Source: Patescibacteria group bacterium (GTDB lineage Bacteria > Patescibacteriota > Microgenomatia > UBA8517). From it: 64,000 nt of DNA. Below are positions 1,231 to 40,835 of this stretch, in pieces. The stretch spans positions 16,457-80,456 of the forward strand of contig JALHYA010000004.1 in the NCBI GenBank assembly GCA_022868165.1, given 5' to 3'. Positions within the stretch are counted from its first letter, which is position 1; each line of letters opens with the position of its first letter. The position numbers and the translations under genes were made by a program. A model generated the notes under the pieces. The model made no database searches. It was given only the letters and a program-made list of their open reading frames with translations, and was not told the origin of the DNA.

Positions 1231-1239
1231 CTCGTTTCA

Positions 1240-1299: not shown

Positions 1300-1339
1300 A
1301 GGCTTGCTCAAAGCACTTCATTAGGTTAAACTTTGCTTA

Positions 1340-1639: not shown

Positions 1640-1646
1640 ATGAGTC

Positions 1647-3806: not shown

Positions 3807-3842
3807 GCCATTGTTGGCACTGGTAAGGCTAGTGTATTATTT

Positions 3843-3937
3843 ATTGTTAGAGGTTAGAAGTTTGAAATGGGAAGTTAGAAAATTCCAATATCTAGCATCG
3901 ATGTCTAGCGTCCAGCATCCAACTTCCCACATCAAAC
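3843..3937. repeat. GGAAGTT-type palindromic heptamer element, intergenic 'empty' copy
   Basis: The left arm gtttgaaatgggaagttaga (3860-3879) is complementary to the right arm tccaacttcccacatcaaac (3918-3937). The loop contains the near-palindrome ctagcatcgatgtctag. Confidence 0.7.
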
Positions 3938-3943
3938 AAAAAA

Positions 3944-5629: not shown

Positions 5630-5638
5630 AACAACAAA

Positions 5639-14164: not shown

Positions 14165-14737
14165 ATGTTTCGGATGAATAAAAAAATCGTTGTTGTTGGA
14201 ATAATTATTTTTATCTTGCTTTTTGGAGCAATTTTCCTTCTTGGTGCGGGACGTAAAAAAACGCCCACTCCTGTTCCAACTACAACCTCGGGGGTTTCCT
14301 GGCAAGGCCTCGTCGCCGGCAAGAGCACAAAGGACCAGGTCAATGGTGTACTGGGAAACCCTCTCAGTGAAACTTCCTCGGGAAATCAAACTACAAACAC
14401 ATATTCTTCCTTAAGCGAAACCCGACCCAACAGTGCCGTTTTTGACAACAACTCCAATACCGCACTGTTTTTAAGGCAAATCGTTTCCGCTAAAGATACC
14501 AAAACAACAAAAGACATTGTGGATGTGTATGGGGAAACAAACACAAAGCTTTACGGCCTTGATTGGATAAACGGGATTTACCTTTTTGTTTATCTGGACA
14601 AGGGGATTGCATATCTTGCAAACCCGGACAGCAACACCCTATTTGAAGTCTGGTATTTTCCTCCCACAACGCTCGACAATTTCCTAAAGACTTGGGCAAC
14701 CGATTATTCAACTCAACCCAAAAACCAACCCTTCTAG
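14165..14737 (+). CDS. membrane-anchored hypothetical protein
   Basis: 190 aa with an N-terminal TM helix (IVVVGIIIFILLFGAIFLLGA). It starts 2 nt after the preceding stop. Confidence 0.65.
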   Translation: MFRMNKKIVVVGIIIFILLFGAIFLLGAGRKKTPTPVPTTTSGVSWQGLVAGKSTKDQVNGVLGNPLSETSSGNQTTNTYSSLSETRPNSAVFDNNSNTALFLRQIVSAKDTKTTKDIVDVYGETNTKLYGLDWINGIYLFVYLDKGIAYLANPDSNTLFEVWYFPPTTLDNFLKTWATDYSTQPKNQPF

Positions 14738-15852
14738 CCCTGAAGTCTAACCGGCATTATAAGGTGAAGATAGTTGGGGTCTGTGGCTTCCTGAAACACT
14801 CCAGGAGCGGTGGCGGATGAGAAAGTTAGCGTTATGGCATCTCCTACGGCTGACTGCAAGAATTCTTCAACAAATCGATAATTGAATGCAATTTCAAATC
14901 CCTTACTTTCGCCCTCGACCTTTGCATCAACTACCGCCTTCTGGCTTCCGGTTTGGTTACTTTCGGCGCTTAACGAAAGTCCCCCTTTTGAAGTAGCAAA
15001 TCGAATTATGTTTGCCGAGTCTCTGGCAAAAACCGAGGATGTTTTGACCGCCCTTAAAAGTTCCTCTTTGTCCACTCCGACTTTTACTTGTCCTCCTTTG
15101 GGGATTATTTTTTCAAAATCGGGAAAGTCCCCTTCCAAAATTCTTGTCGAAAAAACACAATCCCCCACTTCAAAAACCACCTGACTGTCTTTTTCTTTAT
15201 AGGAAAGGGAGATCTCTTCTGCCTCCGCCGAAAGCCTGGAAATTTCTCCCAAAGCGCTTTTCGGCAAAATAATCTTTTGCGGCTTTCCTCCCCCACCCAA
15301 AGAAATCTTCTTTTGGGAAAGCCTAAACCCGTCGGTTGCAACCATTGTCAAGAATCCTTTCTGAAAAAGAAAAAGAACCCCCGTAAGAATGGGCCTTGTC
15401 TCGTCTACTGATGCCGAAAAAACAACCTGAGAAAGGGCCCGGGAAAATTCTTCTTTGGGTAGAAGTATTGAGTTTTGTTTATCTACGCTCTGAGGAATTG
15501 AAGGAAAGTCCCCGGCGTTCATTCCGGAAATGTTGCTTTCAAAACCCTGTGCCGAAATTTGAATTTTTTCTTTTTCTACGGATAATTCAATTTGTCCCGG
15601 AGGAAGATTGGCTACAAGTTCCGAGATAACCCTTGCCGGTACTGTAATTTCTCCCTCTTTTTGTACCTGTGCCCCTATGGAAATTGCAACCGAAATTTCT
15701 AAATTTGTTGCCAAAATGGAAAGTTTTGTCTTCTTTGCCGAAAGAAAGATATTTCCCAAGACAGGAAGTTGGGCTTTGCTGGAAGTAAATCTTAAGGCCG
15801 TATTAAGGGCTTTGGATAAGTTCTCCTGAAGAACAGTAAGTTTCATTTCCAT
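14734..15852 (-). CDS. dnaN: DNA polymerase III beta sliding clamp
   Basis: 372 aa starting MKLTVLQENLSKALN, with clamp-like three-domain length. It lies directly downstream of dnaA. Confidence 0.9.
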   Translation of the reverse strand: MEMKLTVLQENLSKALNTALRFTSSKAQLPVLGNIFLSAKKTKLSILATNLEISVAISIGAQVQKEGEITVPARVISELVANLPPGQIELSVEKEKIQISAQGFESNISGMNAGDFPSIPQSVDKQNSILLPKEEFSRALSQVVFSASVDETRPILTGVLFLFQKGFLTMVATDGFRLSQKKISLGGGGKPQKIILPKSALGEISRLSAEAEEISLSYKEKDSQVVFEVGDCVFSTRILEGDFPDFEKIIPKGGQVKVGVDKEELLRAVKTSSVFARDSANIIRFATSKGGLSLSAESNQTGSQKAVVDAKVEGESKGFEIAFNYRFVEEFLQSAVGDAITLTFSSATAPGVFQEATDPNYLHLIMPVRLQG

Positions 15853-16176: not shown

Positions 16177-17538
16177 TCAAAGCCTCTGTTTTATCCCCAA
16201 GATATCCTGGCGGATTTGCACATCGGTCGAAGCCATCTGGGTTATTTTGTCCACAGCGTGCATTACGGTAGTATGATCTCTTCCTCCCACAAGCCTCCCA
16301 ACTTCTTCCAGAGGAAGCCCCAGGTCCCTTCGAAGTAAATACATCAGTATCTGCCGGGGTCTGGCGACGGGCCTTGCTCTGGAATCTCCAAGAAGGGAAC
16401 GTTTTCCTAAGGAGAAGTGTTTGGACACCGCGGAGATGACGTTTTCCGGATTAACCCTTTTTGTTTGCAAAGCTTGCGACTCCCCCTTACCGAGAAGTGA
16501 CTGAATAAGCTCTTCGGTTATTTGTGTATTTTTTAGTTTCGCTTCAGAAGAAAGCCTTACCAAAAACCCTTCAAGCTTTCGGGCTGAGTCGGTGTTGGCT
16601 GCAATAAGCTGAACCAATTCCATAGGAAGCTCTATTCCCCTACCGGCCGCCTTTATCTGCAAAATCGCACAGCGCAACTCAAAATCCGGGGGCGCAATGT
16701 CAACAATTAATCCCGCCTCAAAACGGCTTCTTAATCTTTCCTCGAGTTTTGATATTTCGGAAGGGGGCCTGTCGGAGGTTAAAATAATTTGACCCCCGGC
16801 GCTGGTTACGGCGTTGAATGTGTGGAAGAATTCTTCCTGCACTGCGTCCTTGCCAGCAATAAACTGAATGTCGTCTATTAAAAGGGCATCAAGTTTGCGG
16901 TATTTGTTTCTGAAAGATTGTGTCGTTTTGTTTCTTATTCCCTCCACGATGTCGTTGGTAAAATCTTCTCCGGTACAAAAAAGAACGTTTGGGTTGGGAT
17001 TTTTGCTTAAGATTTCATACCCGACAGCAATCATTAAATGGGTTTTCCCAACCCCAACGCCTCCCCAAATAAAAAGAGGGTTATATGCGCTCCCCGGAGT
17101 TTTTGAAACCGCGTCAGCCGCAGCCCACGCCATTTGATTGGAAGAAGAGACGGCAAAGTTTTCGAAAGTAAACCCCTGTCTAATCCTTGCCCTAGCTAGC
17201 GCCGTAGAAAGCACTTCCAAAGATTCCTTTTCCTGATTAAACAAAGGGGCGAGAGAGTTTTCGATTGCTTTTGTTTTTGGCGCCTGTTTTACTACAAAGA
17301 GGATGTCGCAGGGCTTCCCCAACTGTTTTGTCAAGCTGTCTTGAATCAGTCCAAAATATCTCGACTCAATGGTTGTCTTAACAAAAGGGGAATTGCAACC
17401 GACCTGTGCGGTTGCCCGATCGTTTATGTCGGCAAGATCTATTAGGTGGGTTTGGGAAAACCATGTAGAGAAAATTGCGGGGGAGACTGCAACCTTTATA
17501 CTCTCAAGGACATCGTGCCAGAGTCTATTTGCATCCAT
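16177..17538 (-). CDS. dnaA: chromosomal replication initiator DnaA
   Basis: 453 aa with Walker A GGVGVGKTHL, Walker B LLIDDIQF, and a C-terminal DNA-binding region (...GGRDHTTVMHAVDKI). Confidence 0.95.
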   Translation of the reverse strand: MDANRLWHDVLESIKVAVSPAIFSTWFSQTHLIDLADINDRATAQVGCNSPFVKTTIESRYFGLIQDSLTKQLGKPCDILFVVKQAPKTKAIENSLAPLFNQEKESLEVLSTALARARIRQGFTFENFAVSSSNQMAWAAADAVSKTPGSAYNPLFIWGGVGVGKTHLMIAVGYEILSKNPNPNVLFCTGEDFTNDIVEGIRNKTTQSFRNKYRKLDALLIDDIQFIAGKDAVQEEFFHTFNAVTSAGGQIILTSDRPPSEISKLEERLRSRFEAGLIVDIAPPDFELRCAILQIKAAGRGIELPMELVQLIAANTDSARKLEGFLVRLSSEAKLKNTQITEELIQSLLGKGESQALQTKRVNPENVISAVSKHFSLGKRSLLGDSRARPVARPRQILMYLLRRDLGLPLEEVGRLVGGRDHTTVMHAVDKITQMASTDVQIRQDILGIKQRL

Positions 17539-29750: not shown

Positions 29751-31076
29751 ATGAGAGAAAGAATGCCTGAACAGAAGTCTGAAATAGTTGAGGTTCCCCA
29801 TGAGGAATTTGTAGCGCGGGCTATTGTCGAAAACGCCAGAAACATGGCCCGTTTTTCAATTGGCCAAACCCCGCCCCCCAACTTTGATTTGGAGAGAGCA
29901 ACCGATTTGGAAGTTGCAAGACATCTTTCTGATGTACAAGTTGACGACAAAAGTCTAGCACAAGATATAAAAGAGGCTCTTGATAGAAATCTCGCAGACC
30001 CGGATGAAGCTTTTCAGGCAGCAAGCCTGACAGTAGCCAAAGCCATAGCTACAGAAGAAGTCGTATTGCCGAATGAAAGAGGATTCTTTAAAAGAGTCTC
30101 CGATAAAGTGGCAAAAGAGATGGGTCAGCTTATCGCCTCAAAATCCGGGAAGAGAGGTTTAGCTGTAGTTTCTGGCCTTTCGCTTGTCGCCACCGCCTGC
30201 GGTCAGGTTGCCCAAGGAGCAGAACCCTTAAGGCCAATAGACCTTGAAACTCCGACTACCGTGGCCACAGAGGTCAGACCTACCAGCACTCCTTTTTCAC
30301 CGGTTCCGCCAACCGAAATAGCCACCCCCACCCCCGAAGCGGTTAGGGATGAGTGGCAGGTATCGGCAGACGGGCTTATTCTTTACAATGAAGCAGAGTT
30401 ATATGACGGGATGTTTACTATAAACCCGGAACGAACAGGATATCTTTACGAACAACTGATGCGGAGTCTTTATCAAATTAACGTGGCGGGGGAAAATATG
30501 CCCTTCTTAAGACAATTTCCGACTCTCGAAGCTTTTATTCAATATGCCCATACTGGACAACCCATAAATAATATGTGGATTGCCATTGACCACCCGGGAA
30601 GCGGGGTAAGGTACCTGTATCAAGCAACTTGGGCTCCAGTTGAACCCGTAGACCTTTCCTCAACGGCCGTTGCTATTGTCCATCTAACCTATGATGATAT
30701 CGTGCATCCTACCACCCGGGACGAAAGGCCATTCTTTCCCGTCGAGGAGGGCGTGGGCGAGCTGGTAATAGAAAGGGTGGAAATAAACGGCGGTTTTGTC
30801 ATAAGGTTTACTTTCCGGCAAAGTCTTTATGATGACTCGGACTATGGCACTTTAGGGCTGTCAGATGATTATCCTTCGGAGCATAATTTGGCGGCAATAA
30901 CCCAGCTTATGAATGCTTGGTCTTGGGAAGTCGACCATATGAGGGATGATGAGGACGATATTCGTATAACTGGTGCGACCCCGCCCATATTCAACATAAC
31001 CAAAAGTTGGCCCAGTGAGGGGGAATTTAGAGAAATGGCAGAAGATGTTGAGAACTCTCCTTTTGTGCTTCGTTAA
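29751..31076 (+). CDS. hypothetical membrane-anchored/secreted protein
   Basis: 441 aa with an internal hydrophobic segment (GLAVVSGLSLVATACGQ) followed by a Pro/Thr linker. I recognised no family motif. Confidence 0.65.
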   Translation: MRERMPEQKSEIVEVPHEEFVARAIVENARNMARFSIGQTPPPNFDLERATDLEVARHLSDVQVDDKSLAQDIKEALDRNLADPDEAFQAASLTVAKAIATEEVVLPNERGFFKRVSDKVAKEMGQLIASKSGKRGLAVVSGLSLVATACGQVAQGAEPLRPIDLETPTTVATEVRPTSTPFSPVPPTEIATPTPEAVRDEWQVSADGLILYNEAELYDGMFTINPERTGYLYEQLMRSLYQINVAGENMPFLRQFPTLEAFIQYAHTGQPINNMWIAIDHPGSGVRYLYQATWAPVEPVDLSSTAVAIVHLTYDDIVHPTTRDERPFFPVEEGVGELVIERVEINGGFVIRFTFRQSLYDDSDYGTLGLSDDYPSEHNLAAITQLMNAWSWEVDHMRDDEDDIRITGATPPIFNITKSWPSEGEFREMAEDVENSPFVLR

Positions 31077-31122
31077 GTCACTTGAAAGATTTACCTTTTT
31101 TTGTAAAGATTAAGGTAGGTAT

Positions 31123-31641
31123 ATGAATAAGCTTCTTTATATTCTATTTGGTATAGTATTTGTCCTTGCTACTGTTTTAGGGGTGTTGTATGAAAGACGG
31201 GGAGGCTTGGTATTTTTGAGTAAAGACAAAATAAACTTCATAAGTAGTAAGAGCGGATTTGAGTGGGAAGTAAACGAAGATTTTGTGCGTTCGCTCGAAG
31301 AGTTGATTAGGACGAAAGAGGGCTCCGAATCGAAGAAAGTATTGGTAGTTCTCTCCTCCGAATTCAAACAAACACCCGAAGGTGGGGGATATGGAGAGCT
31401 TGAACCGTTTGTTTATGCAGAGTGGAGTTCTTCTGGAAATCGGGATACTTTAAATATCTACCTTGATGGCAATATTTGGAAGCAAATAGAAGAAAAGAAG
31501 AGAAATACCCCTGTGTCTTATCTGATATCTCAACAAATTCTGCAACACTTTGAGATGACCGATGAACCTTTAGAGAAGATTACTGAAGATATTTTTAACA
31601 ATGGACCAAAAATTTCTATTAAGGAAAGTTCAATTTTTTAA
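31123..31641 (+). CDS. membrane-anchored hypothetical protein
   Basis: 172 aa with an N-terminal TM helix (LLYILFGIVFVLATVLGVLY). Confidence 0.6.
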   Translation: MNKLLYILFGIVFVLATVLGVLYERRGGLVFLSKDKINFISSKSGFEWEVNEDFVRSLEELIRTKEGSESKKVLVVLSSEFKQTPEGGGYGELEPFVYAEWSSSGNRDTLNIYLDGNIWKQIEEKKRNTPVSYLISQQILQHFEMTDEPLEKITEDIFNNGPKISIKESSIF

Positions 31642-31648
31642 ATTTGCC

Positions 31649-33265
31649 ATGAGGAAACTAATATTGCTAATCTTTTCAGGTTTGATCTTTATTGCATTAT
31701 TTGTTGTCCCCAAAAACATTCAGGCTGCTTGTACTGGTAATACGAAATGCGCACCTTATAGTGGAGGCCATTGTTGGTGGGAGGAGAGTATGTACTATAC
31801 AGTAGGCTGTACCGCCTCGCCACAGTGCGAGGGGAATCCCTGTAATAAGGCCATTTGCCTAGTATCCGATACCTGTGCTTATGTCTGTAATCCTGGTGCA
31901 ACAACTTGTGGTCCTTGTTCCAAAACTTGTGGAGGAGGAATAAGTCTCTGTACGAATGGGTGTAGTTCGTGGAATGTGAATTGTAATACCCAGGCTTGTC
32001 CTCCGCCTGGCTGTCTTTGTGGTAACTGGGTGGACGGCGCCTGCGGTGTTGGTTTATGCGGCTCCAGCGAGCGGCAGCAAACAAGAACCTGTGTCCCTGC
32101 CGCCTGTGCCGCCGAAACCCAATGCGTTGTCGATCCAACTTGTACACTTCCTTCCAGTTGCACCGTTGATCTTCTACCGGCAACAGCCACAACATCAGTG
32201 GGCTCAAGCGTAACGCTTACGGCTTCGGTTACGGTAGGAAGTGGAACCGTTGACCAGGTAAATTTCACTTCTGCCAATACGGGGATTCTTACGGTAAGCC
32301 CGGCTTCCGACAGCACCGTGACGTATCAAACGCAGGCAACAGGGGTGGCCATTGGTTCAACTACCGTATCCACAGAGGTGATTATGGGCGGGGTTTCAAC
32401 TTGCGCTGATAGTGCTGGGTTAGGCGGAGGCACAGTTGTTAATGTGACTTCCGCAGGCCCTTGGTGGCAGGTGATTGATGCGGATATTACAACAAATGGA
32501 AGCATAACATCCAGCATTCCTGGAACTTGCGCCTTGCCGGGATGTAATCCCTTGTTTGATTTGGTCGGCCCCGGAGGCTATCCTGGTGTGCCTGCTTACG
32601 GGGGAACGGCAAGTTTTAGTACAGGCACGGTTTCTACTATTGGATGGCTGGCAAACACTTTAAGTCTAACTTCCAATAACCGGCAATATGCATATGCCTG
32701 GTTTAAGAGACTGATTCCTTCGGATGTAACTATGAATGAGATAACTTCACCTTCCATTGACGGCACCGAGCTTTCTTCAGGGGGAACGGCCAGTGGGGGA
32801 TACTATTATTACCGTTATGACGGCTCAAGCGGGCTGGATTTAACCATAAACACCGATGCTTCGTTGGGCACAAGAAAGGTAATTTTGCTGGTGGACGGGG
32901 CAGATTTGAACCTAAACGCAAGGATTAACTTCACAAAGGGACAGGGATTCTTTATGGCTTTTGTCGGCAAAACCCTGCTGGGGGCCAAGGGTAACATCAA
33001 TGTTTCTTCAACGCTTGGCGGAGGAGTCACACCCCATCTTGAAGGATTGTATGAAGCCGATGGCGCTTTCCATTCAGGAGCAGGAACAACACAGCTTTAT
33101 ATTCGCGGGTCTGTTGCGGCATATGGGGGAATGAATTTGGAACGGAATTTGACCGATAATTCCGCCACCCCGGCCGAAGTCTTTGAATACGCGCCCGATT
33201 TAATCTTCACCTATCCCTATAAACTTAGGGAAAGAAGGATCTTCTGGCAAGAAGTAGCCCCATAG
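31649..33265 (+). CDS. secreted surface protein with thrombospondin-type-1-like Cys repeats and a Big_2-like Ig domain
   Basis: The signal peptide is MRKLILLIFSGLIFIALFVVPKNIQA. CGPCSKTCGGGISLC and W..GACGVGLCGSSERQQTRTC resemble TSR cores (CSxTCGxG...R.R.C). TVDLLPATATTSVGSSVTLTASV...LTVSP is Big_2-like. I moved the start from 31601 to ATG 31649. Confidence 0.6.
   Translation: MRKLILLIFSGLIFIALFVVPKNIQAACTGNTKCAPYSGGHCWWEESMYYTVGCTASPQCEGNPCNKAICLVSDTCAYVCNPGATTCGPCSKTCGGGISLCTNGCSSWNVNCNTQACPPPGCLCGNWVDGACGVGLCGSSERQQTRTCVPAACAAETQCVVDPTCTLPSSCTVDLLPATATTSVGSSVTLTASVTVGSGTVDQVNFTSANTGILTVSPASDSTVTYQTQATGVAIGSTTVSTEVIMGGVSTCADSAGLGGGTVVNVTSAGPWWQVIDADITTNGSITSSIPGTCALPGCNPLFDLVGPGGYPGVPAYGGTASFSTGTVSTIGWLANTLSLTSNNRQYAYAWFKRLIPSDVTMNEITSPSIDGTELSSGGTASGGYYYYRYDGSSGLDLTINTDASLGTRKVILLVDGADLNLNARINFTKGQGFFMAFVGKTLLGAKGNINVSSTLGGGVTPHLEGLYEADGAFHSGAGTTQLYIRGSVAAYGGMNLERNLTDNSATPAEVFEYAPDLIFTYPYKLRERRIFWQEVAP
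33147..33265 (+). repeat. 119-bp perfect direct repeat, copy 1 (3' end of CDS 31649..33265); putative attL
   Basis: Checked base by base, this copy is identical to 39509-39627. Confidence 0.95.
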
Positions 33266-33356: not shown

Positions 33357-33923
33357 ATGGTAGACATCGACAGACTCAGGACATTGCCTGGAGAGGAATT
33401 GGTAAGGCTCGCTTTAAAAGGTGAGGTTATTCTAGCCAGCGAAGAAGGCATTGGAATTCTTGATGGCCAAATCGACCGAACAAAAAATGAAGCAGCTTCG
33501 CTTAAGCTAAGGCTAGGAGAAGTCGCTCGCCAGGACCCAGATTTGCCGGAAAATATAGAATTTAAGGAAATCAAAACCAAGTTACAGTTTGAGATCCCCA
33601 GAAAATTAGACGACTTGGGAAGGAAAAAAGCAAAAACAATAGTCTTTCAAGAAAACCAGGATGGAGCTATCCGTTTTGGAACTCTATTTGAAGCTCGGAT
33701 AGAGTATCCCACTGAGACTACCTCTGGGGTATTTGTTTTTTTGGGACCCATAGAAGCAGCCGCCGGAAAAATTGAGGCCAAACCTGAGGCCCAAGTTATT
33801 TCTTACCTGTCTGTAGTCGGAAAGGCTTTATGGGGTTATGATCCAAATAGTGGTAAACCGGTTCAGTTTGAGACGCCAGCTGGCAAGGCTACTTGTATTG
33901 TTAAAAAAGTTTTCAAGCCGTAA
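33357..33923 (+). CDS. GreA/GreB-family transcription elongation factor homolog
   Basis: 188 aa. The coiled-coil tip ARQDPDLPENIEFKEIK parallels GreA (GDLSENAEYHAAK). The C-terminus VISYLSVVGKALWGYDPNSGKPVQFETPAGKATCIVKKV parallels the GreA C-terminal domain. Confidence 0.65.
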   Translation: MVDIDRLRTLPGEELVRLALKGEVILASEEGIGILDGQIDRTKNEAASLKLRLGEVARQDPDLPENIEFKEIKTKLQFEIPRKLDDLGRKKAKTIVFQENQDGAIRFGTLFEARIEYPTETTSGVFVFLGPIEAAAGKIEAKPEAQVISYLSVVGKALWGYDPNSGKPVQFETPAGKATCIVKKVFKP

Positions 33924-34585
33924 TGATCGAGTCCAAAGAAAGTTCATATCTTTTGTATGGTCCTCCCGCAAGTGGTAAAACTGCACTTGCCCTCGAATTA
34001 AGCAGGAGGATTGCCAAGGAGTACATTTCAGTTGGCGAGCTTACTCGTAGGGAAATCGAATTAGGAACACCTAGGGGTAAAAGACTTCAGAGGTGTTTAG
34101 ACGAAGTTACCGAATATCCAATAGAGTTAATTACAGGATTGGTAGAGGAGAGCATTGTTGCTTGTATGTCGGCGGGCGAGAATTTCATTTTAGATGGTTT
34201 TCCTAAATATGCCCAAGAGGCTCGAGCGTTCGTAAAACTATTAGAAAAACACAGGATTCTCCTAGATGCAGCAATTGTAATTGACCTACCCGTTGAAGGA
34301 GCTTTTGTGCGAGTTCTTAACAGAAGAATTTGTGTTTCCTGTCTAGCGCAAACAGAAGATGGCGGACAAATATGTCCGCAATGTGGAGATGCCCTTACTA
34401 TAAGAGACGACGATATCCCACCCATATTTAAAAGAAGGTATAATGACTATAAGGACTCAATAGACGAAACACTTAGAATTATCGGACCATTTTGTAAGAG
34501 GATAATCCACATACAGGGCTCACAAAGCAAAGAAGATTTATTTAATTTGCTGTATATAAAATTATCCCTTTCCATGCCCGAGTAG
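33923..34585 (+). CDS. adenylate-kinase-like nucleotide kinase with zinc-lid
   Basis: 220 aa with P-loop YGPPASGKT, ILDGFPKYAQEA (compare LDGFPRT), and lid CVSC...CPQCGDALTIRDDD. Confidence 0.7.
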   Translation: MIESKESSYLLYGPPASGKTALALELSRRIAKEYISVGELTRREIELGTPRGKRLQRCLDEVTEYPIELITGLVEESIVACMSAGENFILDGFPKYAQEARAFVKLLEKHRILLDAAIVIDLPVEGAFVRVLNRRICVSCLAQTEDGGQICPQCGDALTIRDDDIPPIFKRRYNDYKDSIDETLRIIGPFCKRIIHIQGSQSKEDLFNLLYIKLSLSMPE

Positions 34586-34651
34586 CTCAGCAGAGAGAGC
34601 GGTTGCGTTGTAAGCAACAGGTCGATGGTTCAAGTCCATCCTCGGGCTCCA
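34576..34651 (+). tRNA. tRNA-Thr (anticodon UGU), CCA encoded, atypical D-loop
   Basis: I folded the cloverleaf by hand. The acceptor GCCCGAG/CUCGGGC has 7 of 7 Watson-Crick pairs. The D stem is GCUC/GAGC, the anticodon stem GUUGC/GCAAC, and the loop G-U-UGU-A-A. The T arm is GAUGG-UUCAAGU-CCAUC, followed by U-CCA. The D-loop AGCAGAGA lacks the usual GG, and position 32 is G. Confidence 0.8.
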
Positions 34652-34658: not shown

Positions 34659-35576
34659 ATGAAAAATAAGGCCATTTTTACTTGGAAAGAGATCGTAGAA
34701 CTTTTAACTGGAAATGGTCACGCGGTTTCTTGTGCAGACATGAGTTCTCTGATTACATACTCCAGACAGCGTGGAATAGGCACGGCTATTTCTTATCAAA
34801 AAACCTCGTACTCAGAAGAAGGCTTGAAAAATCTTAAACGACTTGTTCGGTGGTGGATTTATCTAGACGATTTCACTATCCCCGAGTGGAGAAACGCTAT
34901 TATTACAAAAAAGATTCAAAAAATAGTTGTCGGCTCGTTAAAAAATAACTTACCTCTGACTTTGTACGCAGTATTCTGTCCTTCCTACAAAAAAGGGGTT
35001 GGAGTATCTGGATATACTGGGAAATTAGGAATGCATACCAAAAGGTATATTCAAAAAATGTCAGAATTCGTTCTTTCCACGGAAGATGCGGGCTTGAAAG
35101 TAAAAGGGACAGCCTTTTTTAGCGACCTTCTTTTAGAAAATTACAAAAGACTTGTCGGAACGAACTATAAAAAGGATCTCGCGTCCAACTTTCGAGAATT
35201 CAAAAAAGATATTAAAAAAAACAGTAAAGGAAAAATAAAAAGTGCTCTTTTGTCATCTATCATGGCCCTTAAGCGTGATGTCGGGGAGAAAGGGATAAAG
35301 ACTGGCCCTTTGGGGATATCAGGTGAGCTTTTTAATACGGTCTTTAAGAGGAATAGAGTTTTTTATACAAACCAGCTTGGCTGGTCGGAGCCCATGGTAA
35401 AAGAAAGAACGGAGGTCTTGGCCAGAAGTTACGCAAAACTTGGGGAATACTTTAGGAAGAAATATCCCGAGGGAATTATGTTTTGGGTAGAGAGTGCTTA
35501 CGAGAGGGGTGCCATGTATAGCGGAAACAATCAGCAGGACCCTATTCCAATAATTTATCCCAAAAAAGATGAATGA
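34659..35576 (+). CDS. hypothetical protein (island orphan)
   Basis: 305 aa and Lys-rich. I recognised no family motif. It overlaps the downstream gene by 8 nt. Confidence 0.7.
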   Translation: MKNKAIFTWKEIVELLTGNGHAVSCADMSSLITYSRQRGIGTAISYQKTSYSEEGLKNLKRLVRWWIYLDDFTIPEWRNAIITKKIQKIVVGSLKNNLPLTLYAVFCPSYKKGVGVSGYTGKLGMHTKRYIQKMSEFVLSTEDAGLKVKGTAFFSDLLLENYKRLVGTNYKKDLASNFREFKKDIKKNSKGKIKSALLSSIMALKRDVGEKGIKTGPLGISGELFNTVFKRNRVFYTNQLGWSEPMVKERTEVLARSYAKLGEYFRKKYPEGIMFWVESAYERGAMYSGNNQQDPIPIIYPKKDE

Positions 35577-36546
35577 CAATTCCAAAATAGAGGGGCTTCT
35601 AAGCAACTTGGAACTTGAGTGGTTTAGGCTGGGCCGAGATTTCCACCTCGATTTTGAATTTCTTACAAATCTTTACAGCAAGGAGAAAAAACATATTTTC
35701 GAACATAGCCCCTATCATGTACTCTCCTATTTACGATTCAAAAACCAGCTCTACGGTATTTCAGGCAGATTTGGTTCTCTAGTTTTGGTTTCGAGAAAAG
35801 ATGACAAATTTCTATTTACCCCTCGCATTGACGACTTTAAATCATTCGAGCTTTTTATCAAAGCAATTAAAAGGAGCCTCGGGGTTACCAAAATTGAAAT
35901 TCGGAACGTCAGTGAGCAATGGTTACAATCATTCCTGGTGAATGTATCAAATGTTGCGAAAAGGGGGATGTCTGTGAAAGAGCGCTCAAGGGAGGAGGCT
36001 ATCTATGATGTCGACCTGTTGTGCGAACTCCGCGGAAAAGATTTTGCAGGGATTAGACAATCCAGAAATAAGTTGTTAAACAGTGGAAGTATTCAGTTTA
36101 AGCCCTTTACTAAAATTTCCTTAAAGGACGGTGTAGGGGTCTTAAATAAATGGCAGAAAGTCCAAGGTTGGAAGTATGTTAAAGAGAGAATAGAGAAAGA
36201 GAAATATGTACTTGCGAGATTTTTTGATTTTTCTCGGTTAACAAAGAATGTATTGTGTGGGGTTGGCTATTATAAGGAAGTGCCTTTAAGTATTCTGGTT
36301 ATGCACCTTGTTCCAAACGGGGAAAAAAGCGGAACAATCTACCTACTTAAAGGAATAAACAGGCCTTCTGACGGGGGCACCCATGGAATATCAGATGCTA
36401 CTTACTGTTACGCTTTCCTTAGAGCTAAGGAGATGGGTATAAAATACCTCAATGATGGAGAATTGGGAACAGAAGAGGGTACAAGGAGACACAAACTCAA
36501 TTTTAAGCCGATAGAATTTCTCAAATCCTACGACGTTTTGCTCTAA
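35569..36546 (+). CDS. DUF2156-type (MprF/LysX C-terminal-like) putative aminoacyl-tRNA-dependent transferase
   Basis: 325 aa. EEAIYDVDLLCELRGKDFAGIRQSRNKL and the C-terminal YLNDGELGTEEGTRRHKLNFKP match the pattern I recall for DUF2156 (…Y…L..L.G......R...N.F … N.G......GL..FK..F.P). Confidence 0.55.
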   Translation: MNDNSKIEGLLSNLELEWFRLGRDFHLDFEFLTNLYSKEKKHIFEHSPYHVLSYLRFKNQLYGISGRFGSLVLVSRKDDKFLFTPRIDDFKSFELFIKAIKRSLGVTKIEIRNVSEQWLQSFLVNVSNVAKRGMSVKERSREEAIYDVDLLCELRGKDFAGIRQSRNKLLNSGSIQFKPFTKISLKDGVGVLNKWQKVQGWKYVKERIEKEKYVLARFFDFSRLTKNVLCGVGYYKEVPLSILVMHLVPNGEKSGTIYLLKGINRPSDGGTHGISDATYCYAFLRAKEMGIKYLNDGELGTEEGTRRHKLNFKPIEFLKSYDVLL

Positions 36547-36548: not shown

Positions 36549-37688
36549 ATGAAACAGCTAAGAACGAATGAGTTTTATAACGAGATCGAATTTGAAAAAA
36601 TTTTCCCCCCTCAACTTTATGAAAATTTCAACTCTGAATTGCCAGCACCACTAAATGGACGGACAACAATTTTCACCTTATATGGCAGAAATGCTCTGTA
36701 CCTTGGTGCGAGAGAGATGTTAAATTTGACTAAAAGAAACATTGTGCTAGTTCCGGCCTACTCGTGTGGGGATGAAATAGCTCCATTTGTAGCTTCCGGT
36801 TGCAGAATTAAAGCTTACCGTGTACACCCTGAAACCTTGCAGGTAGATAAAAAGGATATTGAGCAGAAATTGGATCAGAATGTTTCTGCGGTTTTGATAA
36901 CACACTATTTTGGTTTTCCTCAAAAGGAAATAGAAATTATAAAAAAGATATGTGGAGAAAGGGGAGTCGTACTTATTGAAGACTGTGCCCACGCTTTTGC
37001 GGGTGGATTTAAAAACATCCCCCTAGGTGCTTTTGGGGACTTTTCCATTTTTAGTTTAAGAAAGTTTTTGCCTATTCCGCATGGGGGAGCTCTGGTCATA
37101 AATAACACGAAGATAAACAGACCAAATCCCCTCCCGCCACCGGCTACGGCAGTAAATCTTGACCTTTTTCTTTATTCGGGTTACCAGGCTGGTATTTTTA
37201 CGCGAGGAATAAACATTCAGGACACACTCGATATGGTAGGTGTCAAACAAAAAGATTTACATGGCCCACGGCTAAAAGAGTTTGGTGGTTATAATTTAGG
37301 TCTTTCCAATGTTGCAAAAGTTCTAATCGCATTTATTGCAAAGCAGAAATTGTGGACAAAGAGAAGATCAAACTTTCTTTATTATTTGGACTTTTTCGAA
37401 AAGAATTCGCATAAATCGGTGCAACCGCTGTTTGAATTCCTTGAGAAAGGGGTAGTACCTTTATTTTTTCCTGTTCTAGTAAACGACTCTGAAGAGATAT
37501 ATAAAAGATTGAGAGACAAGGGCCTTTTTGCTGGACAACCATTCTGGTCTGATTCCCATACCTATTTCAACTGGGCTGATTTTTCGCCCTTAAACGAGCT
37601 GAAGAAGAAGGTTATGGTTTTGCCAGTGAATCATAGAGTCCATTATCGAGACTTAAAGCGTTTCCTTGAAGTTTCAGACTATAGGTAG
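36549..37688 (+). CDS. DegT/DnrJ/EryC1/StrS-family PLP-dependent aminotransferase
   Basis: 379 aa with VLITHYFGFPQ, LIEDCAHAFAGG, and FSIFSLRKFLPIPHGGALV, which places the Lys at the PLP position. Confidence 0.75.
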   Translation: MKQLRTNEFYNEIEFEKIFPPQLYENFNSELPAPLNGRTTIFTLYGRNALYLGAREMLNLTKRNIVLVPAYSCGDEIAPFVASGCRIKAYRVHPETLQVDKKDIEQKLDQNVSAVLITHYFGFPQKEIEIIKKICGERGVVLIEDCAHAFAGGFKNIPLGAFGDFSIFSLRKFLPIPHGGALVINNTKINRPNPLPPPATAVNLDLFLYSGYQAGIFTRGINIQDTLDMVGVKQKDLHGPRLKEFGGYNLGLSNVAKVLIAFIAKQKLWTKRRSNFLYYLDFFEKNSHKSVQPLFEFLEKGVVPLFFPVLVNDSEEIYKRLRDKGLFAGQPFWSDSHTYFNWADFSPLNELKKKVMVLPVNHRVHYRDLKRFLEVSDYR

Positions 37689-37700: not shown

Positions 37701-38978
37701 ATGTGTAGAGACATGTATATACTGTTTGGGCCTCCTGGAAGTGGTAAAACTGTCCAGGCGAGATTTTTGTCCCAAAGGTTGAAACTGGACGGTATTTCAT
37801 GGGGTGACATCTACTGGGGTACAAAGTTTAACAAGAAGTACAAGGGACAAATTGCTGTAATAAAGAAGGAGGCTATCTCTGACAGAACTCGCTCGAAGGA
37901 GATAGCAAAGATAATTGACAAGGAAATTGGCAGCCTTACTTTACGAAATAAAGGCGGGAAGCGGGGGTTGGTTTTGGACGGATTTCCTAGAAGATTGGGA
38001 GAGGCTAGACTCCTTCTTAAAATATGCAAGAAAAGGGGATACAGAATAAAATCCTTGATTCGCATAAATCCATCTTTAGATTTTTCAGCGAACCGCTTCA
38101 AAAAAAGGCTTTTTTGTGAAAAATGCCGCGCTTATTACGATGAACTCAATCTACCCAAGAAGAAGGGTCGTTGTGATTTAGACGGCGGAAGGCTATCTCA
38201 TATGGATATTTCAAAGGAGAGTGTGGCGAAAGAATTTAACACCTATTTAGACGAATGTCTCGAAACATTTGAATATCTCAAAGATTATGCAGACATTTTT
38301 TTTGATGTAACTGGCGACGATGAAGATATGGTTATTTCTTCAAATATTCTTATTAAAATAAAGAATAGAATTCGAGAAAATTATAGTCTCTTTTCAAGAA
38401 AGCCCTCTACATCTATTATGACTAAGTACGGTAGTTTTAAGCTTGTACCCTATCAATCACGACTAGATTATTCCTACCACTTAGCGCTTGTAAAGGGAAA
38501 CGTTAGAGATGGAAAACGAGTACTGGTTAGGGTTCATTCCTCTTGCATAACCGGAGATATTTTTGGGTCCTATATGTGTGATTGCGGAGAACAACTAGAG
38601 GAATCCATGAAAAGAATCGAGCACGAAAAGAGGGGAGTTTTAATATATTTATTTCAGGAAGGCAGGGGCATAAACATGATTAACAAAATTCAAGCTTACA
38701 GGTTACAACGCAATGGGTATGACACAGTGGATGCTAATGAAGCCATCGGTTTTCCAGCCGAAATGAGGGACTACCGGTTAGTGAAGGAGGTTTTGGAGGA
38801 TTTGGGGGTAAAAACAATTAGATTGTTGTCCAATAGTCCCGAGAAGATCAATAAACTTACAGACCAGGGAGTTATTATAGAAGAAATGGTTGGAGTCGAA
38901 GTAGAGCCTCGAAAGTGGAACAGAGGATACTTGCTTACAAAAAAGGAGAAAATGGGTCATAAGTTGGATGTTTCATAA
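37701..38978 (+). CDS. fusion protein: adenylate-kinase-like N-domain + GTP cyclohydrolase II (RibA-like) C-domain
   Basis: The N-domain has LFGPPGSGKT, LDGFPRRLGEA and lid CEKC...CDLDGG. The C-domain has VRVHSSCITGDIFGSYMCDCGEQL, conserving the three Zn Cys of RibA, plus QEGRGINMINK...GYDTVDAN...LLSNSPEK. ATG 37713 is an alternative start. Confidence 0.75.
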   Translation: MCRDMYILFGPPGSGKTVQARFLSQRLKLDGISWGDIYWGTKFNKKYKGQIAVIKKEAISDRTRSKEIAKIIDKEIGSLTLRNKGGKRGLVLDGFPRRLGEARLLLKICKKRGYRIKSLIRINPSLDFSANRFKKRLFCEKCRAYYDELNLPKKKGRCDLDGGRLSHMDISKESVAKEFNTYLDECLETFEYLKDYADIFFDVTGDDEDMVISSNILIKIKNRIRENYSLFSRKPSTSIMTKYGSFKLVPYQSRLDYSYHLALVKGNVRDGKRVLVRVHSSCITGDIFGSYMCDCGEQLEESMKRIEHEKRGVLIYLFQEGRGINMINKIQAYRLQRNGYDTVDANEAIGFPAEMRDYRLVKEVLEDLGVKTIRLLSNSPEKINKLTDQGVIIEEMVGVEVEPRKWNRGYLLTKKEKMGHKLDVS

Positions 38979-39507
38979 TAATATGAAAGTTGTTTTAGGG
39001 TCCACAAGTGATGATAAAAAAAGAATTGTAAAGGCAGCCCTGAAATCTCTTGGTGTAAAGGCTGTGATTGAGGGGGTTACTGTCTCTTCGGGGATAAGTG
39101 AGCAGCCTTTAGATAAAAAGACCACGATTTGCGGTGCAGTGAATCGGGCGGTAGAAGCCTTGAAAATTAAAACCGATTCGGACCTCGCTGTGGGGTTAGA
39201 GGGGGGCTTGGATCGAGTAAAAGATTCAGGCTTTTTTCTTGTGTGTGCGGCTGCTATATATGACAAAAGCGGAGGAATCTATCTGGGAACGAGCAGGAAA
39301 ATAAAACTTCCCAAAGAAGTATCTGAAAAAATAGAGGAGGGGGCATTTTTCGGAACGGTAATTAGAGAATATAGAAAGAAAGTAAGAAAAAATAAGGCAT
39401 TGTTTAATCTTTCAGACCAACTTATAACAAGAAATGTCCCTTTTTCAGAGGCAATACGAAACGCCTATAAATCTTTCAAAGAAGGTACACTCTATCAAAA
39501 GTTTTAG
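38968..39507 (+). CDS. YjjX-family non-canonical purine NTP phosphatase (ITPase/XTPase)
   Basis: MKVVLGSTSDDKKRIVKAAL...VSSGISEQPL...GAVNRA...LAVGLEGGL resembles the inosine/xanthosine triphosphatase family. ATG 38983 is an alternative start. The stop ends 1 nt before repeat copy 2. Confidence 0.6.
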   Translation: MFHNNMKVVLGSTSDDKKRIVKAALKSLGVKAVIEGVTVSSGISEQPLDKKTTICGAVNRAVEALKIKTDSDLAVGLEGGLDRVKDSGFFLVCAAAIYDKSGGIYLGTSRKIKLPKEVSEKIEEGAFFGTVIREYRKKVRKNKALFNLSDQLITRNVPFSEAIRNAYKSFKEGTLYQKF

Positions 39508-39629: not shown

Positions 39630-40835
39630 TTAGGCTGAATCGACAATCGTCATCTCCGCGTTAGCTGAAATCTTTTCCAAGGAAGCGGGTTTGTTGTTGA
39701 AAAAGGCATATGAGGCGATATATGCGGCGTTGTCCGTGCAGAGATTTGCGGGAGGAAATCGTAAATCAACTTTTAACTTTTCACTTTTCACTTTTAACTC
39801 AAATACTTGTCGAAGACGAGTATTAGCCGATACTCCTCCAGCTAAAAGAAGGGATTTGGGCTTGAATTTCTTTACTGCGTCCAGAGTCTTTTTAACTAAA
39901 ACGTCAACGATTGCCTCCTGTATTTCTGCTGCCAGCCTGGAAGTTAGAGGTGGGAAGCTTGAAGCTGGATGTAGATGTTGGAGTTTAGATTTATTCCAAC
40001 TTCTAACTTCTTTGTCCAGCTTCTCACCTCTATTTTCCAATTTCTCTGTTTCCCTAAGCACCGCTGTCTTAAGGCCCGAAAAACTGAAGTCAAAATTATC
40101 CTCATCAATCATCGGTCTGGGAAGTAGATTTAGTTGGAAGTGGGAGGCAGGAGGCTGGAAGTTCGCTGCGGCGGCGGCGATGGCTGGTCCTCCCGGGTAG
40201 GGAAGTCCCAAAAGACGGGCGGACTTGTCAAAAGCCTCGCCGGCCGCATCATCCCTTGTTCCTCCAATCCACTCTATTTTTCCCCGCCCGCCAGCGCTAC
40301 GCGCAAGCGTTGCGGGCGCGGCGTGGCCTTTCATCAGAACCAAATCCGTATGTCCTCCGGAAACAACCAGTGCCAGTGCCGGAAATTCCGGCCGACTATC
40401 CGTTAGCCAGTTGGCGTATATGTGTGCCACAAGATGGTTAACCGGAATAACAGGCTTTTTCCATAAATAGGAAAGGGTTTTGGCCGTTTCTACTCCGACC
40501 AAAAGGGAACCAATAAGGCCCGGCCCGACGGTTACGGCAATGGCGTCTATATTGGAAGATAGAAGATGGAGGTTTGAAGCTAGATTTTGATGTTGGATAT
40601 TAGATTTTTCCTCCAACTTCGAACTTCTAACTTCAGAGACAGTACTTAGTGCTTCGGAGATAACAGGAAGAACGCTGAGAACCTGCTGGCGTGCAGCCTG
40701 CTCCGGGATTACGCCGCCAAATTTGGCCTGCATTTCCGCGCTCGATGCAACAACATTGGAAAGAATTTTTGTTCCGTCTTCGACAACTGCCGCTGCAGTT
40801 TCATCACATGAGGTCTCTATCCCCAGAATTTTCAT
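39630..40835 (-). CDS. tsaD: tRNA N6-adenosine threonylcarbamoyltransferase TsaD, with low-complexity insertions
   Basis: Contains MKILGIETSCDETAAAVV, AIAVTVGPGLIGSLLVG, VVSGGHT, GGTRDDAAGEAFDK, FSFSGLKTA and LAGGVSANTRLR. At 401 aa it is longer than typical TsaD proteins, which as I recall are about 330-350 aa. Confidence 0.9.
   Translation of the reverse strand: MKILGIETSCDETAAAVVEDGTKILSNVVASSAEMQAKFGGVIPEQAARQQVLSVLPVISEALSTVSEVRSSKLEEKSNIQHQNLASNLHLLSSNIDAIAVTVGPGLIGSLLVGVETAKTLSYLWKKPVIPVNHLVAHIYANWLTDSRPEFPALALVVSGGHTDLVLMKGHAAPATLARSAGGRGKIEWIGGTRDDAAGEAFDKSARLLGLPYPGGPAIAAAAANFQPPASHFQLNLLPRPMIDEDNFDFSFSGLKTAVLRETEKLENRGEKLDKEVRSWNKSKLQHLHPASSFPPLTSRLAAEIQEAIVDVLVKKTLDAVKKFKPKSLLLAGGVSANTRLRQVFELKVKSEKLKVDLRFPPANLCTDNAAYIASYAFFNNKPASLEKISANAEMTIVDSA
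39768..39800. repeat. tandem heptamer repeat (AACTTTT/CACTTTT x4) inside tsaD
   Basis: The sequence aacttttaacttttcacttttcacttttaactc encodes ELKVKSEKLKV on the coding strand. Confidence 0.75.
39936..40046. repeat. GGAAGTT-type palindromic heptamer element, in-frame inside tsaD (copy B)
   Basis: The left half is ctggaag|ttagagg|tgggaag|cttgaag|ctggatg... The right half is ...ccaacttctaacttctttgtccagcttctcacctcta. The arms are mutually complementary, and the element is homologous to 40551-40640. Confidence 0.75.
40551..40640. repeat. GGAAGTT-type palindromic heptamer element, in-frame inside tsaD (copy D)
   Basis: The sequence is attggaagatagaagatggaggtttgaagctagattttgatgttggatattagatttttcctccaacttcgaacttctaacttcagagac. 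With copy B it shares gatgttgga..ttagattt..ccaacttc..taacttc. Confidence 0.75.

Follow-up and report, generated by a model that had tools for sequence, protein, structure and literature searches.

The region analysed is a 64-kb stretch of a Patescibacteria (CPR) chromosome, here called the window, in which a tRNA gene and only seven protein-coding genes form a cassette on the forward strand. The following features were assigned to it:

33357..33923, + strand: GreA/GreB C-terminal-domain-like protein, 188 aa (Pfam GreA_GreB, E 1.4e-4, under the curated cut-off; NCBIfam GreA matches weak)
33923..34585, + strand: Adk-like NMP kinase with a Zn-ribbon lid, 220 aa (Pfam ADK, E 6.7e-21)
34576..34651, + strand: cassette-specific tRNA(Thr)-like gene with UGU anticodon, D-loop AGCAGAGA, G32, U73 and encoded CCA (ARAGORN, Rfam RF00005 and fold)
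34659..35576, + strand: 'orphan' protein, 305 aa, with an N-terminal helical domain and a class-Ic aaRS/CDPS/isonitrile-synthase-like Rossmann domain
35569..36546, + strand: soluble DUF2156/LPG_synthase_C-type aminoacyl-tRNA transferase homologue, 325 aa, tandem GNAT fold
36549..37688, + strand: DegT/DnrJ/EryC1-family PLP-dependent aminotransferase homologue, 379 aa (Pfam PF01041, E 2.6e-21)
37701..38978, + strand: fusion of an Adk-like kinase and GTP cyclohydrolase II (RibA), 425 aa (Pfam GTP_cyclohydro2, E 7e-61; ADK, E 2.6e-12)
38968..39507, + strand: NTPase_I-T/DUF84 (ITPase/XTPase-type) nucleoside triphosphatase homologue, 179 aa (Pfam PF01931, E 6.9e-28)

Related loci were found protein-first, by searching with the orphan protein. 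Carriers of the cassette include a 210-kb NCBI contig, GCA_001816485.1 and the 298-kb Paceibacterota scaffold JBAZJH010000001. The genes for the Adk-RibA fusion (220.9 bits against NCBIfam TIGR00505 ribA, cut-off 205.85) and for the NTPase_I-T/DUF84 protein are kept in the cassette across these loci, the DegT gene is present at nearly all of them and missing from L015, and the Adk-like gene lies immediately 5' of the tRNA with the exceptions of L009 and L010. The GreA-like gene is a recurrent member whose strand and position differ among loci; it adjoins the cassette in L002-4, L005, L007, L010, L015, L018 and L033. GC content over 34-39 kb is 0.38-0.41 against about 0.44 for the whole window, and the 'A/T-rich island' of an earlier note on this sequence is thus correct in direction but merely mild in degree. 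The same note had raised the possibility that the tRNA is cargo of a mobile element. This could not be upheld, as no integrase, transposase or other mobility gene flanks the cassette and its neighbours are housekeeping genes near dnaA/dnaN, which lie within the window; the flanks encode a class I aaRS, TsaD, VanW and a solute-binding protein. A phage origin was rejected after scans of viral contigs yielded no relatives. A role in anti-phage defence was likewise rejected, since PADLOC gave no meaningful match and a single marginal one to IetA (E about 1e-3). The cassette is not described in the literature searched on DUF2156, on dedicated or non-proteinogenic tRNAs in gene clusters, on GTP cyclohydrolase together with aminoacyl-tRNA, or on CYTH/NUDIX defence.

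The segment 34576-34651 encodes a genuine, foldable tRNA. ARAGORN called it tRNA-Thr(UGU) on the forward strand, and its score against Rfam RF00005 was 63.3 bits (gathering score 29), equal to that of the ordinary tRNA-Cys at 49159 of the window. The minimum-free-energy fold is a cloverleaf of -30.6 kcal/mol (z = -3.68), and none of 200 shuffled sequences was as stable. The acceptor stem (GCCCGAG/CTCGGGC), D-stem (GCUC/GAGC) and anticodon stem (GUUGC/GCAAC) are accompanied by a canonical T-loop (UUCAAGU), a Levitt pair, the discriminator U73 and a CCA encoded in the gene at 34649-34651. The D-loop AGCAGAGA carries a single G where G18G19 is expected, and differs in this from that of the window tRNA-Cys. 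The anticodon loop, GUUGUAA (G32, U33, UGU, A37, A38), has a canonical-looking length of 7 nt, and the window copy could still decode ACA/ACG. The gene is located inside the operon, away from its edge. The Adk-like ORF (33923-34585) ends with ATG CCC GAG TAG and shares 10 nt with the tRNA, its stop codon forming U8-A9-G10. On all these points the reading of the earlier note was confirmed: the 76-nt tRNA with its GG-less D-loop, G32 and CCA, the 10-nt overlap, and the order tRNA, orphan, DUF2156 (gene starts at 34659 and 35569). No second tRNA-Thr was found by ARAGORN in the 64 kb. A promoter-like site directly 5' of the tRNA was not detected either, in a scan that overall performed no better than chance.

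Besides the window, the same tRNA was present in all 32 related loci having sequence 5' of the orphan gene, in 19 distinct sequences. In these CPR-clade loci the orphan gene is invariably 3' of the tRNA, and the discriminator base is separated from the orphan start codon by 2-22 nt (median 7) in 33/33 sequences. The tRNA accompanies the orphan gene in lineages with unrelated flanks. It still adjoins the orphan gene in L009 and L010, where DegT is rearranged, and in L015, where both DUF2156 and DegT are absent; because the linkage outlasts these changes, the orphan gene, and not the DUF2156 gene, is the tightest partner of the tRNA. The acceptor, D and T arms have a mean identity of about 92%, with 33-58% for the orphan and DUF2156 proteins. 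A D-loop of the type AG(C/A)AGAGA without GG is found family-wide, G18G19 being missing from the window copy and from 19/19 orthologues. Signatures of the cassette tRNA are GTAGCTCAGCAGAGAGAGC and GTAGCTCAGMAGAGAGAGY...GGTTCAAGTCC.

The cloverleaf is supported by covariation in 10 of 21 pairs among 18 orthologues. Compensatory changes occur at each of the five pairs of the anticodon stem, and the proportion of paired cells is 98.9%. Within the anticodon loop only G35-U36 is invariant: position 34 is U in eight members, A in five and C in two (UGU, AGU, CGU), position 37 is a pyrimidine (U/C) in 10 and position 33 is A in three of the 15 seven-nucleotide loops, and four of the 19 members have loops of 8-9 nt or stems of 6 bp. 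The family therefore departs from a canonical elongator tRNA (G18-G19, U33, purine 37, 7-nt loop on a 5-bp stem), of which the window copy retains U33 and A37. The acceptor pairs G1-C72, C2-G71 and C3-G70 are invariant, as is U73, and the T-stem contains G49-C65, R50-U64 (G-U in 10/18) and U51-A63. G1-C72, C2-G71, G35 and U36, which we take to be the ThrRS identity positions from work on E. coli and T. thermophilus, are unchanged in all 19 distinct sequences. Threonine identity has been attributed to acceptor-stem pairs and anticodon nucleotides (PMC9976931). The family pattern is the one that would be expected if recognition by ThrRS had been kept and decoding had not.

More distant homologues of the orphan form a second clade, built around GTP cyclohydrolase IB, CYTH, NDK and NUDIX proteins. 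Here the link to a tRNA carries over only partly: a tRNA-like gene occurs at two of four distinct loci, being of the Val(UAC) type with A73 in L034 and L036, and none was found in L038 and L040-42 even at permissive Rfam thresholds.

For the orphan protein no sequence homologue was detected in Pfam, NCBIfam or the PDB sequences. Its family is small and counts about 100 representatives in a set of 1.8 billion proteins. The structural model has a TyrRS/PvcA/CDPS-like fold, and the best full-length Foldseek match was IsnA/PvcA (PDB 9dhm, 9dh4, 3e59; E about 6e-5, TM about 0.57, about 288 aligned columns). The HIGH and KMSKS motifs and the sequence-family match of a class I aaRS are lacking, no HIGH-type motif being present and the histidine that opens the first helix not being conserved. 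An assignment to IsnA/PvcA finds no Pfam DIT1_PvcA match and no oxygenase gene at any locus. Ser109 was considered as a CDPS-type catalytic serine and dropped, as it is invariant within the CPR clade and variable in the wider family. Natural fusions join the orphan to DUF2156 and to Adk, and NDK to the orphan. The DUF2156 protein, in turn, scores above the gathering threshold of Pfam PF09924 and has the tandem-GNAT fold of LysPGS, MprF and the Fem proteins, its structural model matching LysPGS, FemX, MprF, FemA and Sbb17. It is missing from L015 and from the second orphan clade.

Taken with the tRNA itself, the universal link between it and the orphan gene, its conservation pattern and the protein folds and domain fusions, these data make it probable that the gene encodes a private, presumably non-decoding Thr-type tRNA of a rare Patescibacteria cassette, which would most likely serve as amino-acid donor for the cassette enzymes, with a GTP-derived nucleotide as acceptor. 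In the proposed mechanism, the GreA-like, Adk-like, tRNA, orphan, DUF2156, DegT, Adk-RibA and NTPase genes would be co-transcribed as an operon, and the tRNA would be excised by the normal tRNA-processing enzymes, which would leave a nearly leaderless orphan mRNA. Threonylation would most likely be carried out by the ThrRS of the cell, because G1-C72, C2-G71, G35 and U36 are invariant. The altered elbow between D-loop and T-loop would probably exclude the tRNA from translation, to which the degenerate anticodon loop of most members may contribute. The Thr-tRNA could then act as donor of an activated amino acid for two tRNA-related enzymes, of which the orphan, with its TyrRS/CDPS/isonitrile-synthase fold, would be the first and obligatory partner, and the DUF2156 tandem-GNAT transferase the second. 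The kinase, GTP cyclohydrolase and NTPase genes would provide the probable acceptor, a nucleotide derived from GTP. The earlier note had suggested a dedicated donor for the adjacent transferase. Its idea of dedication is strongly supported by the comparative data, but the closest partner is the orphan and not DUF2156.

Other explanations were weighed against this one. The orphan might itself be a non-canonical, class-I-like synthetase that loads the private tRNA with a non-threonine or an additional substrate, the charged tRNA being consumed by DUF2156 and not being a substrate of ThrRS. The order of the orphan-DUF2156 fusion, which equals the AspRS-DUF2156 order in ErdS, would agree with this, the Adk and NDK fusions would suit a ligase that consumes NTP and produces NMP, and the orphan and tRNA genes are adjacent at every locus. 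However, the orphan sequence is unlike that of any aaRS and has neither a HIGH-type motif nor a conserved first-helix histidine, its closest full-length fold is that of ATP-independent isonitrile synthases, L015 and the second clade have no DUF2156 to use a charged tRNA, and the invariant nucleotides form exactly the ThrRS identity set; we regard this explanation as unlikely. That the gene is the ordinary tRNA-Thr(UGU) of the genome, possibly in dual use, and came to its place by synteny or by a past insertion of the cassette beside a tRNA gene, appears more improbable still. CPR genomes are small and their tRNA genes are often single-copy, the window contains no further tRNA-Thr, and in the window copy the Infernal score is normal, the loop has 7 nt with U33 and A37, the T-loop is canonical and a Levitt pair is present. 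Against this stand the position of the gene within the operon instead of at its edge, its linkage to the orphan even where the flanks are unrelated, a D-loop unlike that of the window tRNA-Cys, and a single tRNA body that bears UGU, AGU or CGU according to lineage. The Y37, A33 and 8-9-nt loops of most orthologues are, moreover, incompatible with an essential decoder.

The short distance of 2-22 nt to the orphan start codon in every sequence, the overlap with the upstream stop codon and the absence of a promoter-like site just 5' of the tRNA in the scan could also point to a tRNA-like element that serves processing or punctuation and never receives an amino acid, at which RNase P and RNase Z split the Adk-like and orphan messages to give a leaderless orphan mRNA, or to an RNA scaffold. 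Such a role would leave the invariant G35-U36, the first three acceptor pairs, U73 and the compensated anticodon stem unexplained, and both neighbouring proteins have folds that handle aminoacyl-tRNAs or amino acids, which makes it very improbable. Hardly any weight can be given to the proposal of the earlier note that the gene is a codon-usage helper, an additional tRNA-Thr(UGU) for the A/T-rich island. GC3 is somewhat lower in the cassette (0.38, with a comparison value of 0.44), and ACA makes up 38% of its threonine codons versus 29% (chi-square p about 0.04). Absolute use of ACA is nevertheless lower, at 15.3 per 1000 codons in the cassette against 17.3 in the rest of the window, because threonine is rarer there. 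The cassette holds just seven protein-coding genes, and the orthologues carry AGU or CGU anticodons and non-canonical loops that are often unfit to decode.

Starting from the preferred explanation, that of a cassette-dedicated donor tRNA, a more specific pathway can be put forward tentatively, as a possibility that is rather doubtful in its details. In this unrecognised tRNA-dependent route, a private tRNA insulated from translation would carry a beta-branched amino acid, which the orphan would graft onto the product of a GTP cyclohydrolase, so forming an aminoacylated purine- or pterin-derived nucleotide. The tRNA would be of the Thr type in the Patescibacteria clade and of the Val(UAC)/A73 type in some members of the second clade. 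The product might function as antimetabolite, signal or cofactor, and the GreA-like factor might provide self-protection. Little secondary metabolism is expected in the reduced genomes of Patescibacteria, and the cassette offers a concrete and testable proposal for a biosynthetic function in this group. The orphan family would be a likely new class of enzymes that depend on tRNA and are linked to nucleotides derived from GTP. If the explanation is correct, the evolution of the tRNA family also reveals which parts are selected once decoding is dispensable: selection still acts on the acceptor arm, the elbow and the nucleotides recognised by the synthetase, whereas the other positions of the anticodon loop have been released. 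The only dedicated non-proteogenic tRNAs reported to date come from staphylococci (PMC7826273). The cassette tRNA would then be a second, independent case, with the new aspect that the tRNA gene belongs to an enzyme operon.

Several known systems share features with the cassette. Among tRNA-dependent steps of natural-product synthesis are those of Sbb17, an aminoacyl-tRNA-dependent peptide synthase (PDB 9wqx), VlmA and PacB. As far as is known, such pathways draw on housekeeping tRNAs, and none in the literature searched is described as encoding an atypical tRNA of its own in the cluster, or as being partnered by GTP cyclohydrolase and NMP kinases. IsnA enzymes act on free Tyr/Trp and ribulose-5-phosphate and have no link to tRNA. 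The orphan resembles IsnA/PvcA in length and in a pocket of the kind that binds an alpha-amino acid, but gives no match to Pfam DIT1_PvcA, and the cassette has no IsnB/PvcB-type oxygenase. CDPSs, whose substrates are aminoacyl-tRNAs, have in common with the orphan a conserved small nucleophilic residue after the first strand (Cys107 in the orphan, Ser in CDPS). Unlike them, the orphan shows no sequence or Pfam similarity, the catalytic CDPS residues could not be mapped onto it, and it possesses an extra N-terminal domain of 95 aa, its nearest full-length fold being IsnA/PvcA. The fungal ErdS is an AspRS paralog fused to DUF2156 (PMC7334510), and the same arrangement, an aaRS-fold N-terminal and a DUF2156 C-terminal domain, is fused in some cassette relatives. 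In contrast to ErdS and to the lipid aminoacylation by MprF/LysPGS, the N-terminal partner in the cassette is not recognisable as a synthetase, DUF2156 is soluble and has no membrane domain, the gene neighbourhood indicates a nucleotide-derived acceptor instead of a lipid, and the cassette brings a private tRNA gene.

The analogy with the staphylococcal non-proteogenic tRNA-Gly, already drawn in the earlier note, is apt in principle. In S. aureus and S. epidermidis the isoacceptors NP1-3 feed FmhB, FemA and FemB; they bind EF-Tu poorly, and the determinants for the transferases lie in the D and T arms (PMC7826273). Like these, the cassette tRNA is predicted to be an extra tRNA with retained synthetase identity, and it deviates in the D/T region, including position 19. 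As in staphylococci, a tandem-GNAT aminoacyl-tRNA transferase, here DUF2156, would use the tRNA in place of the ribosome. The cassette tRNA is distinguished by its Thr type and canonical T-loop, by a family in which the anticodon loop itself is degenerate (Y37, A33, free N34, 8-9-nt loops), by its location within an enzyme operon and co-inheritance across divergent Patescibacteria, and by an obligatory partner that is an uncharacterised protein of aaRS/CDPS/IsnA fold.

The gene at 34576-34651 (+) was identified by ARAGORN as a tRNA-Thr(UGU). With the Rfam tRNA model RF00005 (gathering score 29) it scores 63.3 bits, the same as the ordinary tRNA-Cys at 49159, and minimum-free-energy folding gives the cloverleaf (-30.6 kcal/mol, z = -3.68). 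Reading of the sequence gave the following elements.

Acceptor stem (+): GCCCGAG/CTCGGGC
Between acceptor and D-stem: U8 A9
D-stem: GCUC/GAGC
D-loop: AGCAGAGA, with one G only at the expected G18G19
After the D-stem: G26
Anticodon stem: GUUGC/GCAAC
Anticodon loop: G32-U33-UGU-A37-A38
Variable loop: AGGUC
T-arm: GAUGG-UUCAAGU-CCAUC
3' end: U73 and an encoded CCA

The upstream Adk-like ORF (33923-34585) ends ATG CCC GAG TAG and overlaps the tRNA by 10 nt, its stop codon forming U8-A9-G10, while the next ORF begins at 34659. ARAGORN, Rfam, folding and the sequence thus bear out all that the earlier note had described (tRNA-Thr(UGU), cloverleaf, CCA, D-loop lacking GG, G32 and the 10-nt overlap), and the order it gave, with the orphan gene and then the DUF2156 gene after the tRNA, agrees with the ORFs at 34659 and 35569. 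The tRNA is situated inside a tightly packed set of genes, all on the same strand, referred to here as the cassette.

Start 33357 (+): GreA-like protein
Start 33923 (+): Adk-like protein
34576-34651 (+): tRNA
Start 34659 (+): orphan protein, 305 aa
Start 35569 (+): DUF2156 / LPG_synthase_C protein
Start 36549 (+): DegT-type aminotransferase
Start 37701 (+): Adk-GTP cyclohydrolase II (RibA) fusion
Start 38968 (+): NTPase_I-T / DUF84 protein

By its closest protein matches the DNA comes from a Patescibacteria (CPR) bacterium. The window is chromosomal and probably spans the chromosomal replication origin, with dnaN (14734-15852, -) and dnaA (16177-17538, -) close to the cumulative GC skew minimum (~15-18 kb). 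Class I aaRS genes, GroEL, RmuC and an AddA-like helicase are also encoded, and no integrase gene was found in the 64 kb. The cassette had been described as an A/T-rich island; its GC is indeed lower than in the rest of the window, only mildly so. A run of genes at 8326-14163 (+) carries PrgI-family and TraG/VirB4-type P-loop domains and large unannotated ORFs, the latter also present at 1647-8203, and resembles a type IV secretion system or a conjugation-like apparatus beside the origin. Upstream of the cassette, three ORFs at 29751-33265 (+; 441, 172 and 554 aa) gave no family match except a weak Big_2, and similar unannotated ORFs precede the cassette of one relative (L002). Immediately downstream, on the opposite strand, a homologue of TsaD (tRNA t6A threonylcarbamoyltransferase) is located at 39630-40835 (-), a curious neighbour since A37 of a Thr-type tRNA would be the t6A site. 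This adjacency is absent from the other loci and is therefore probably coincidental.

Relatives were searched by protein, not by tRNA, in a protein database, species-representative genomes and JGI metagenomes. Of the 33 loci found, 32 were usable, as one (L030) has no sequence upstream of the orphan gene. A tRNA gene lies directly upstream of the orphan homologue in 32/32, giving 19 distinct tRNA sequences with the window included. In 33/33 sequences the orphan gene starts 2-22 nt (median 7) after the discriminator base, too close for a Shine-Dalgarno sequence to fit between tRNA and start codon. The common order is Adk-like, tRNA, orphan, DUF2156, DegT, Adk-RibA, NTPase. In L009 and L010 DegT is relocated upstream and the tRNA still adjoins the orphan gene; L015 lacks DUF2156 and DegT and keeps Adk-like, tRNA, orphan, Adk-RibA and NTPase; in L033 orphan and DUF2156 form a single 630-aa protein and the tRNA is retained. 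The flanking genes vary among lineages, indicating that the cassette is portable rather than part of a conserved stretch of chromosome. Some loci carry further features: in L015 (4628-9370) a 190-aa single-domain GNAT follows the NTPase and the GreA-like gene is divergently oriented, and just upstream of the L009 cassette (3422-5115) two tRNA-Tyr(GUA) genes flank genes including a YbaK/ProX-type tRNA_edit protein. L014 (JBBSXF010000060.1), a 4.5-kb cassette contig labelled 'Nanoarchaeota archaeon', either comes from Patescibacteria and was mis-binned or indicates transfer to DPANN archaea.

Orphan and DUF2156 homologues share 33-58% identity with the window copies; the tRNA, with its anticodon arm and variable loop set aside, has a mean identity of 92% (50 nt). 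Threonine identity resides in acceptor-stem pairs and anticodon nucleotides (PMC9976931). Invariant in the tRNA family are G1-C72, C2-G71, C3-G70, U8, A9, A14, A21, G53-C61 and U73, as well as the D-stem, in which two members have a G10-U25 wobble as the sole deviation; all members share the D-loop AG(C/A)AGAGA, and all but one the T-loop UUCAAGU. The anticodon stem varies freely in sequence with pairing kept, showing double compensatory changes at 5/5 pairs. Pairing is kept in 98.9% of cells over the whole alignment, with changes on both sides in 10 of 21 pairs, a covariation that no shuffle or slid control came near. In the anticodon loop only G35-U36 are fixed. Among the 15 loops of seven nt, N34 is U in eight, A in five and C in two, A33 occurs in three, and position 37, a near-universal purine in decoding tRNAs, is U or C in ten. 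Position 32 can be any base. In four members the loop has 8-9 nt (or the stem 6 bp) with NGU still central, and CCA is encoded in a few copies only. G1-C72, C2-G71, G35 and U36 reportedly make up the threonine identity sets of E. coli and Thermus. With these positions fixed and decoding features loose, the family keeps what ThrRS needs and drops what the ribosome needs. The window copy is among the minority with both U33 and A37, and its non-decoding would follow from orthology.

The orphan gave no Pfam, NCBIfam or PDB sequence match. Its predicted structure (pLDDT 94.4, from a 35-sequence alignment) is of the class-Ic-aaRS Rossmann type, preceded by an additional N-terminal domain; full-length Foldseek placed the isonitrile synthases PIsnA and PvcA on top (E ~6e-5, TM ~0.57), followed by TyrRS, TrpRS and cyclodipeptide synthase. 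The HIGH motif is absent. In the Patescibacteria clade C107-P108-S109-Y110 follows the first strand; across the wider alignment there is no variation at P108 and D156, C107 occurs in 16/18 sequences and is replaced by Ser in the two most distant ones, S109 is variable and E282-R/K283 is mostly retained. The DUF2156 protein was also modelled (pLDDT 94.8). A profile search of 1.84 billion representatives yielded only 106 orphan family members, among them five orphan-DUF2156, three orphan-Adk and one NDK-orphan fusion.

Distant homologues form a second clade, with the order GTP cyclohydrolase IB (GCHY-1), CYTH, orphan(-Adk), NDK, NUDIX or, alternatively, RibA followed by NDK-orphan, and without DUF2156. 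By the gene content of both clades, the orphan family is always tied to GTP cyclohydrolase, nucleotide kinases and NTP pyrophosphatases. A tRNA-like gene heads the operon in two of four distinct loci (L034, L036); none was found in L038 and L040-42. The two orphan-Adk proteins share only 45% identity, and the 5' halves of the two tRNA-like genes are nearly identical. Both genes have a GG-less D-loop (AGUUGA), anticodon UAC, A73 and an encoded CCA; that of L036 scores 46 bits with RF00005, and that of L034 is more degenerate (T-loop UGCAAGA, U37). A35, C36 and A73 are valine identity elements, and Thr and Val are isosteric. A review names A73 and A35 for valine identity (PMC9976931). A Val-type tRNA at these two loci fits an amino-acid-specific donor role. 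The L034 neighbourhood (1-4645, GCA_964479755.1) resembles a defence island: neighbours of the cassette are genes for a reverse transcriptase, accompanied by an Rfam RT-16 RNA (86 bits), for an AAA_5 ATPase and for a protein with a MazE domain; a MazE-domain gene is also found upstream, divergent, in L040/L042.

We infer a mechanism whose steps are given in order of falling support. The tRNA would be transcribed together with the operon; the sole promoter-like site with 10/12 matches lies upstream of the GreA-like gene, in a scan that was not above chance. Excision of the tRNA would leave an orphan mRNA leader of at most ~20 nt; 3' processing would make this mRNA nearly leaderless, and RNase P cleavage would strip the stop codon from the Adk-like message in the window. 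The tRNA would then be charged by ThrRS, as its identity positions suggest. The altered elbow (one G18/G19-T-loop contact lost) and loosened anticodon loop may prevent competition in translation, by analogy with staphylococcal non-proteogenic tRNA-Gly, which is kept from such competition (PMC7826273). Thr-tRNA would be used by the orphan, a putative enzyme, and possibly also by the DUF2156 enzyme in most Patescibacteria cassettes. The putative acceptor is a nucleotide that the Adk-RibA fusion would produce from GTP, with GTP fed by the Adk-like kinases and the product perhaps tailored by DegT and NTPase.

The orphan could instead be a non-canonical synthetase for the cassette tRNA, in line with its TyrRS-like fold and with the order of the orphan-DUF2156 fusions, which place the aaRS-like part before DUF2156, as in fungal ErdS, a fusion of an AspRS paralog with DUF2156 (PMC7334510). 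Against this, the orphan has no ATP motifs, the tRNA retains the ThrRS identity set and cassettes without DUF2156 exist. Consumer is the more likely role by parsimony, because the orphan is the sole tRNA-related protein in L015 and in the second clade. The tRNA could also be the ordinary tRNA-Thr(UGU), and the window copy may have a dual use. A role in RNA processing alone would leave the invariance of G35-U36 and of the acceptor identity unaccounted for, and the codon-usage helper proposed in the earlier note fails on both codon counts and anticodon drift. The dedicated tRNA, its other proposal, is supported by the 32/32 linkage and the conservation pattern, and a donor role is its most likely function.

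In the literature searched, nothing was found on this cassette, and dedicated non-proteogenic tRNAs are described in staphylococci only (PMC7826273). That a tRNA paralogue can be set aside for an enzyme that depends on aminoacyl-tRNA is known in principle; new are a Thr-type tRNA embedded in the operon, with its anticodon loop in decay, a partner family of uncharacterised enzymes and the connection with GTP cyclohydrolase.
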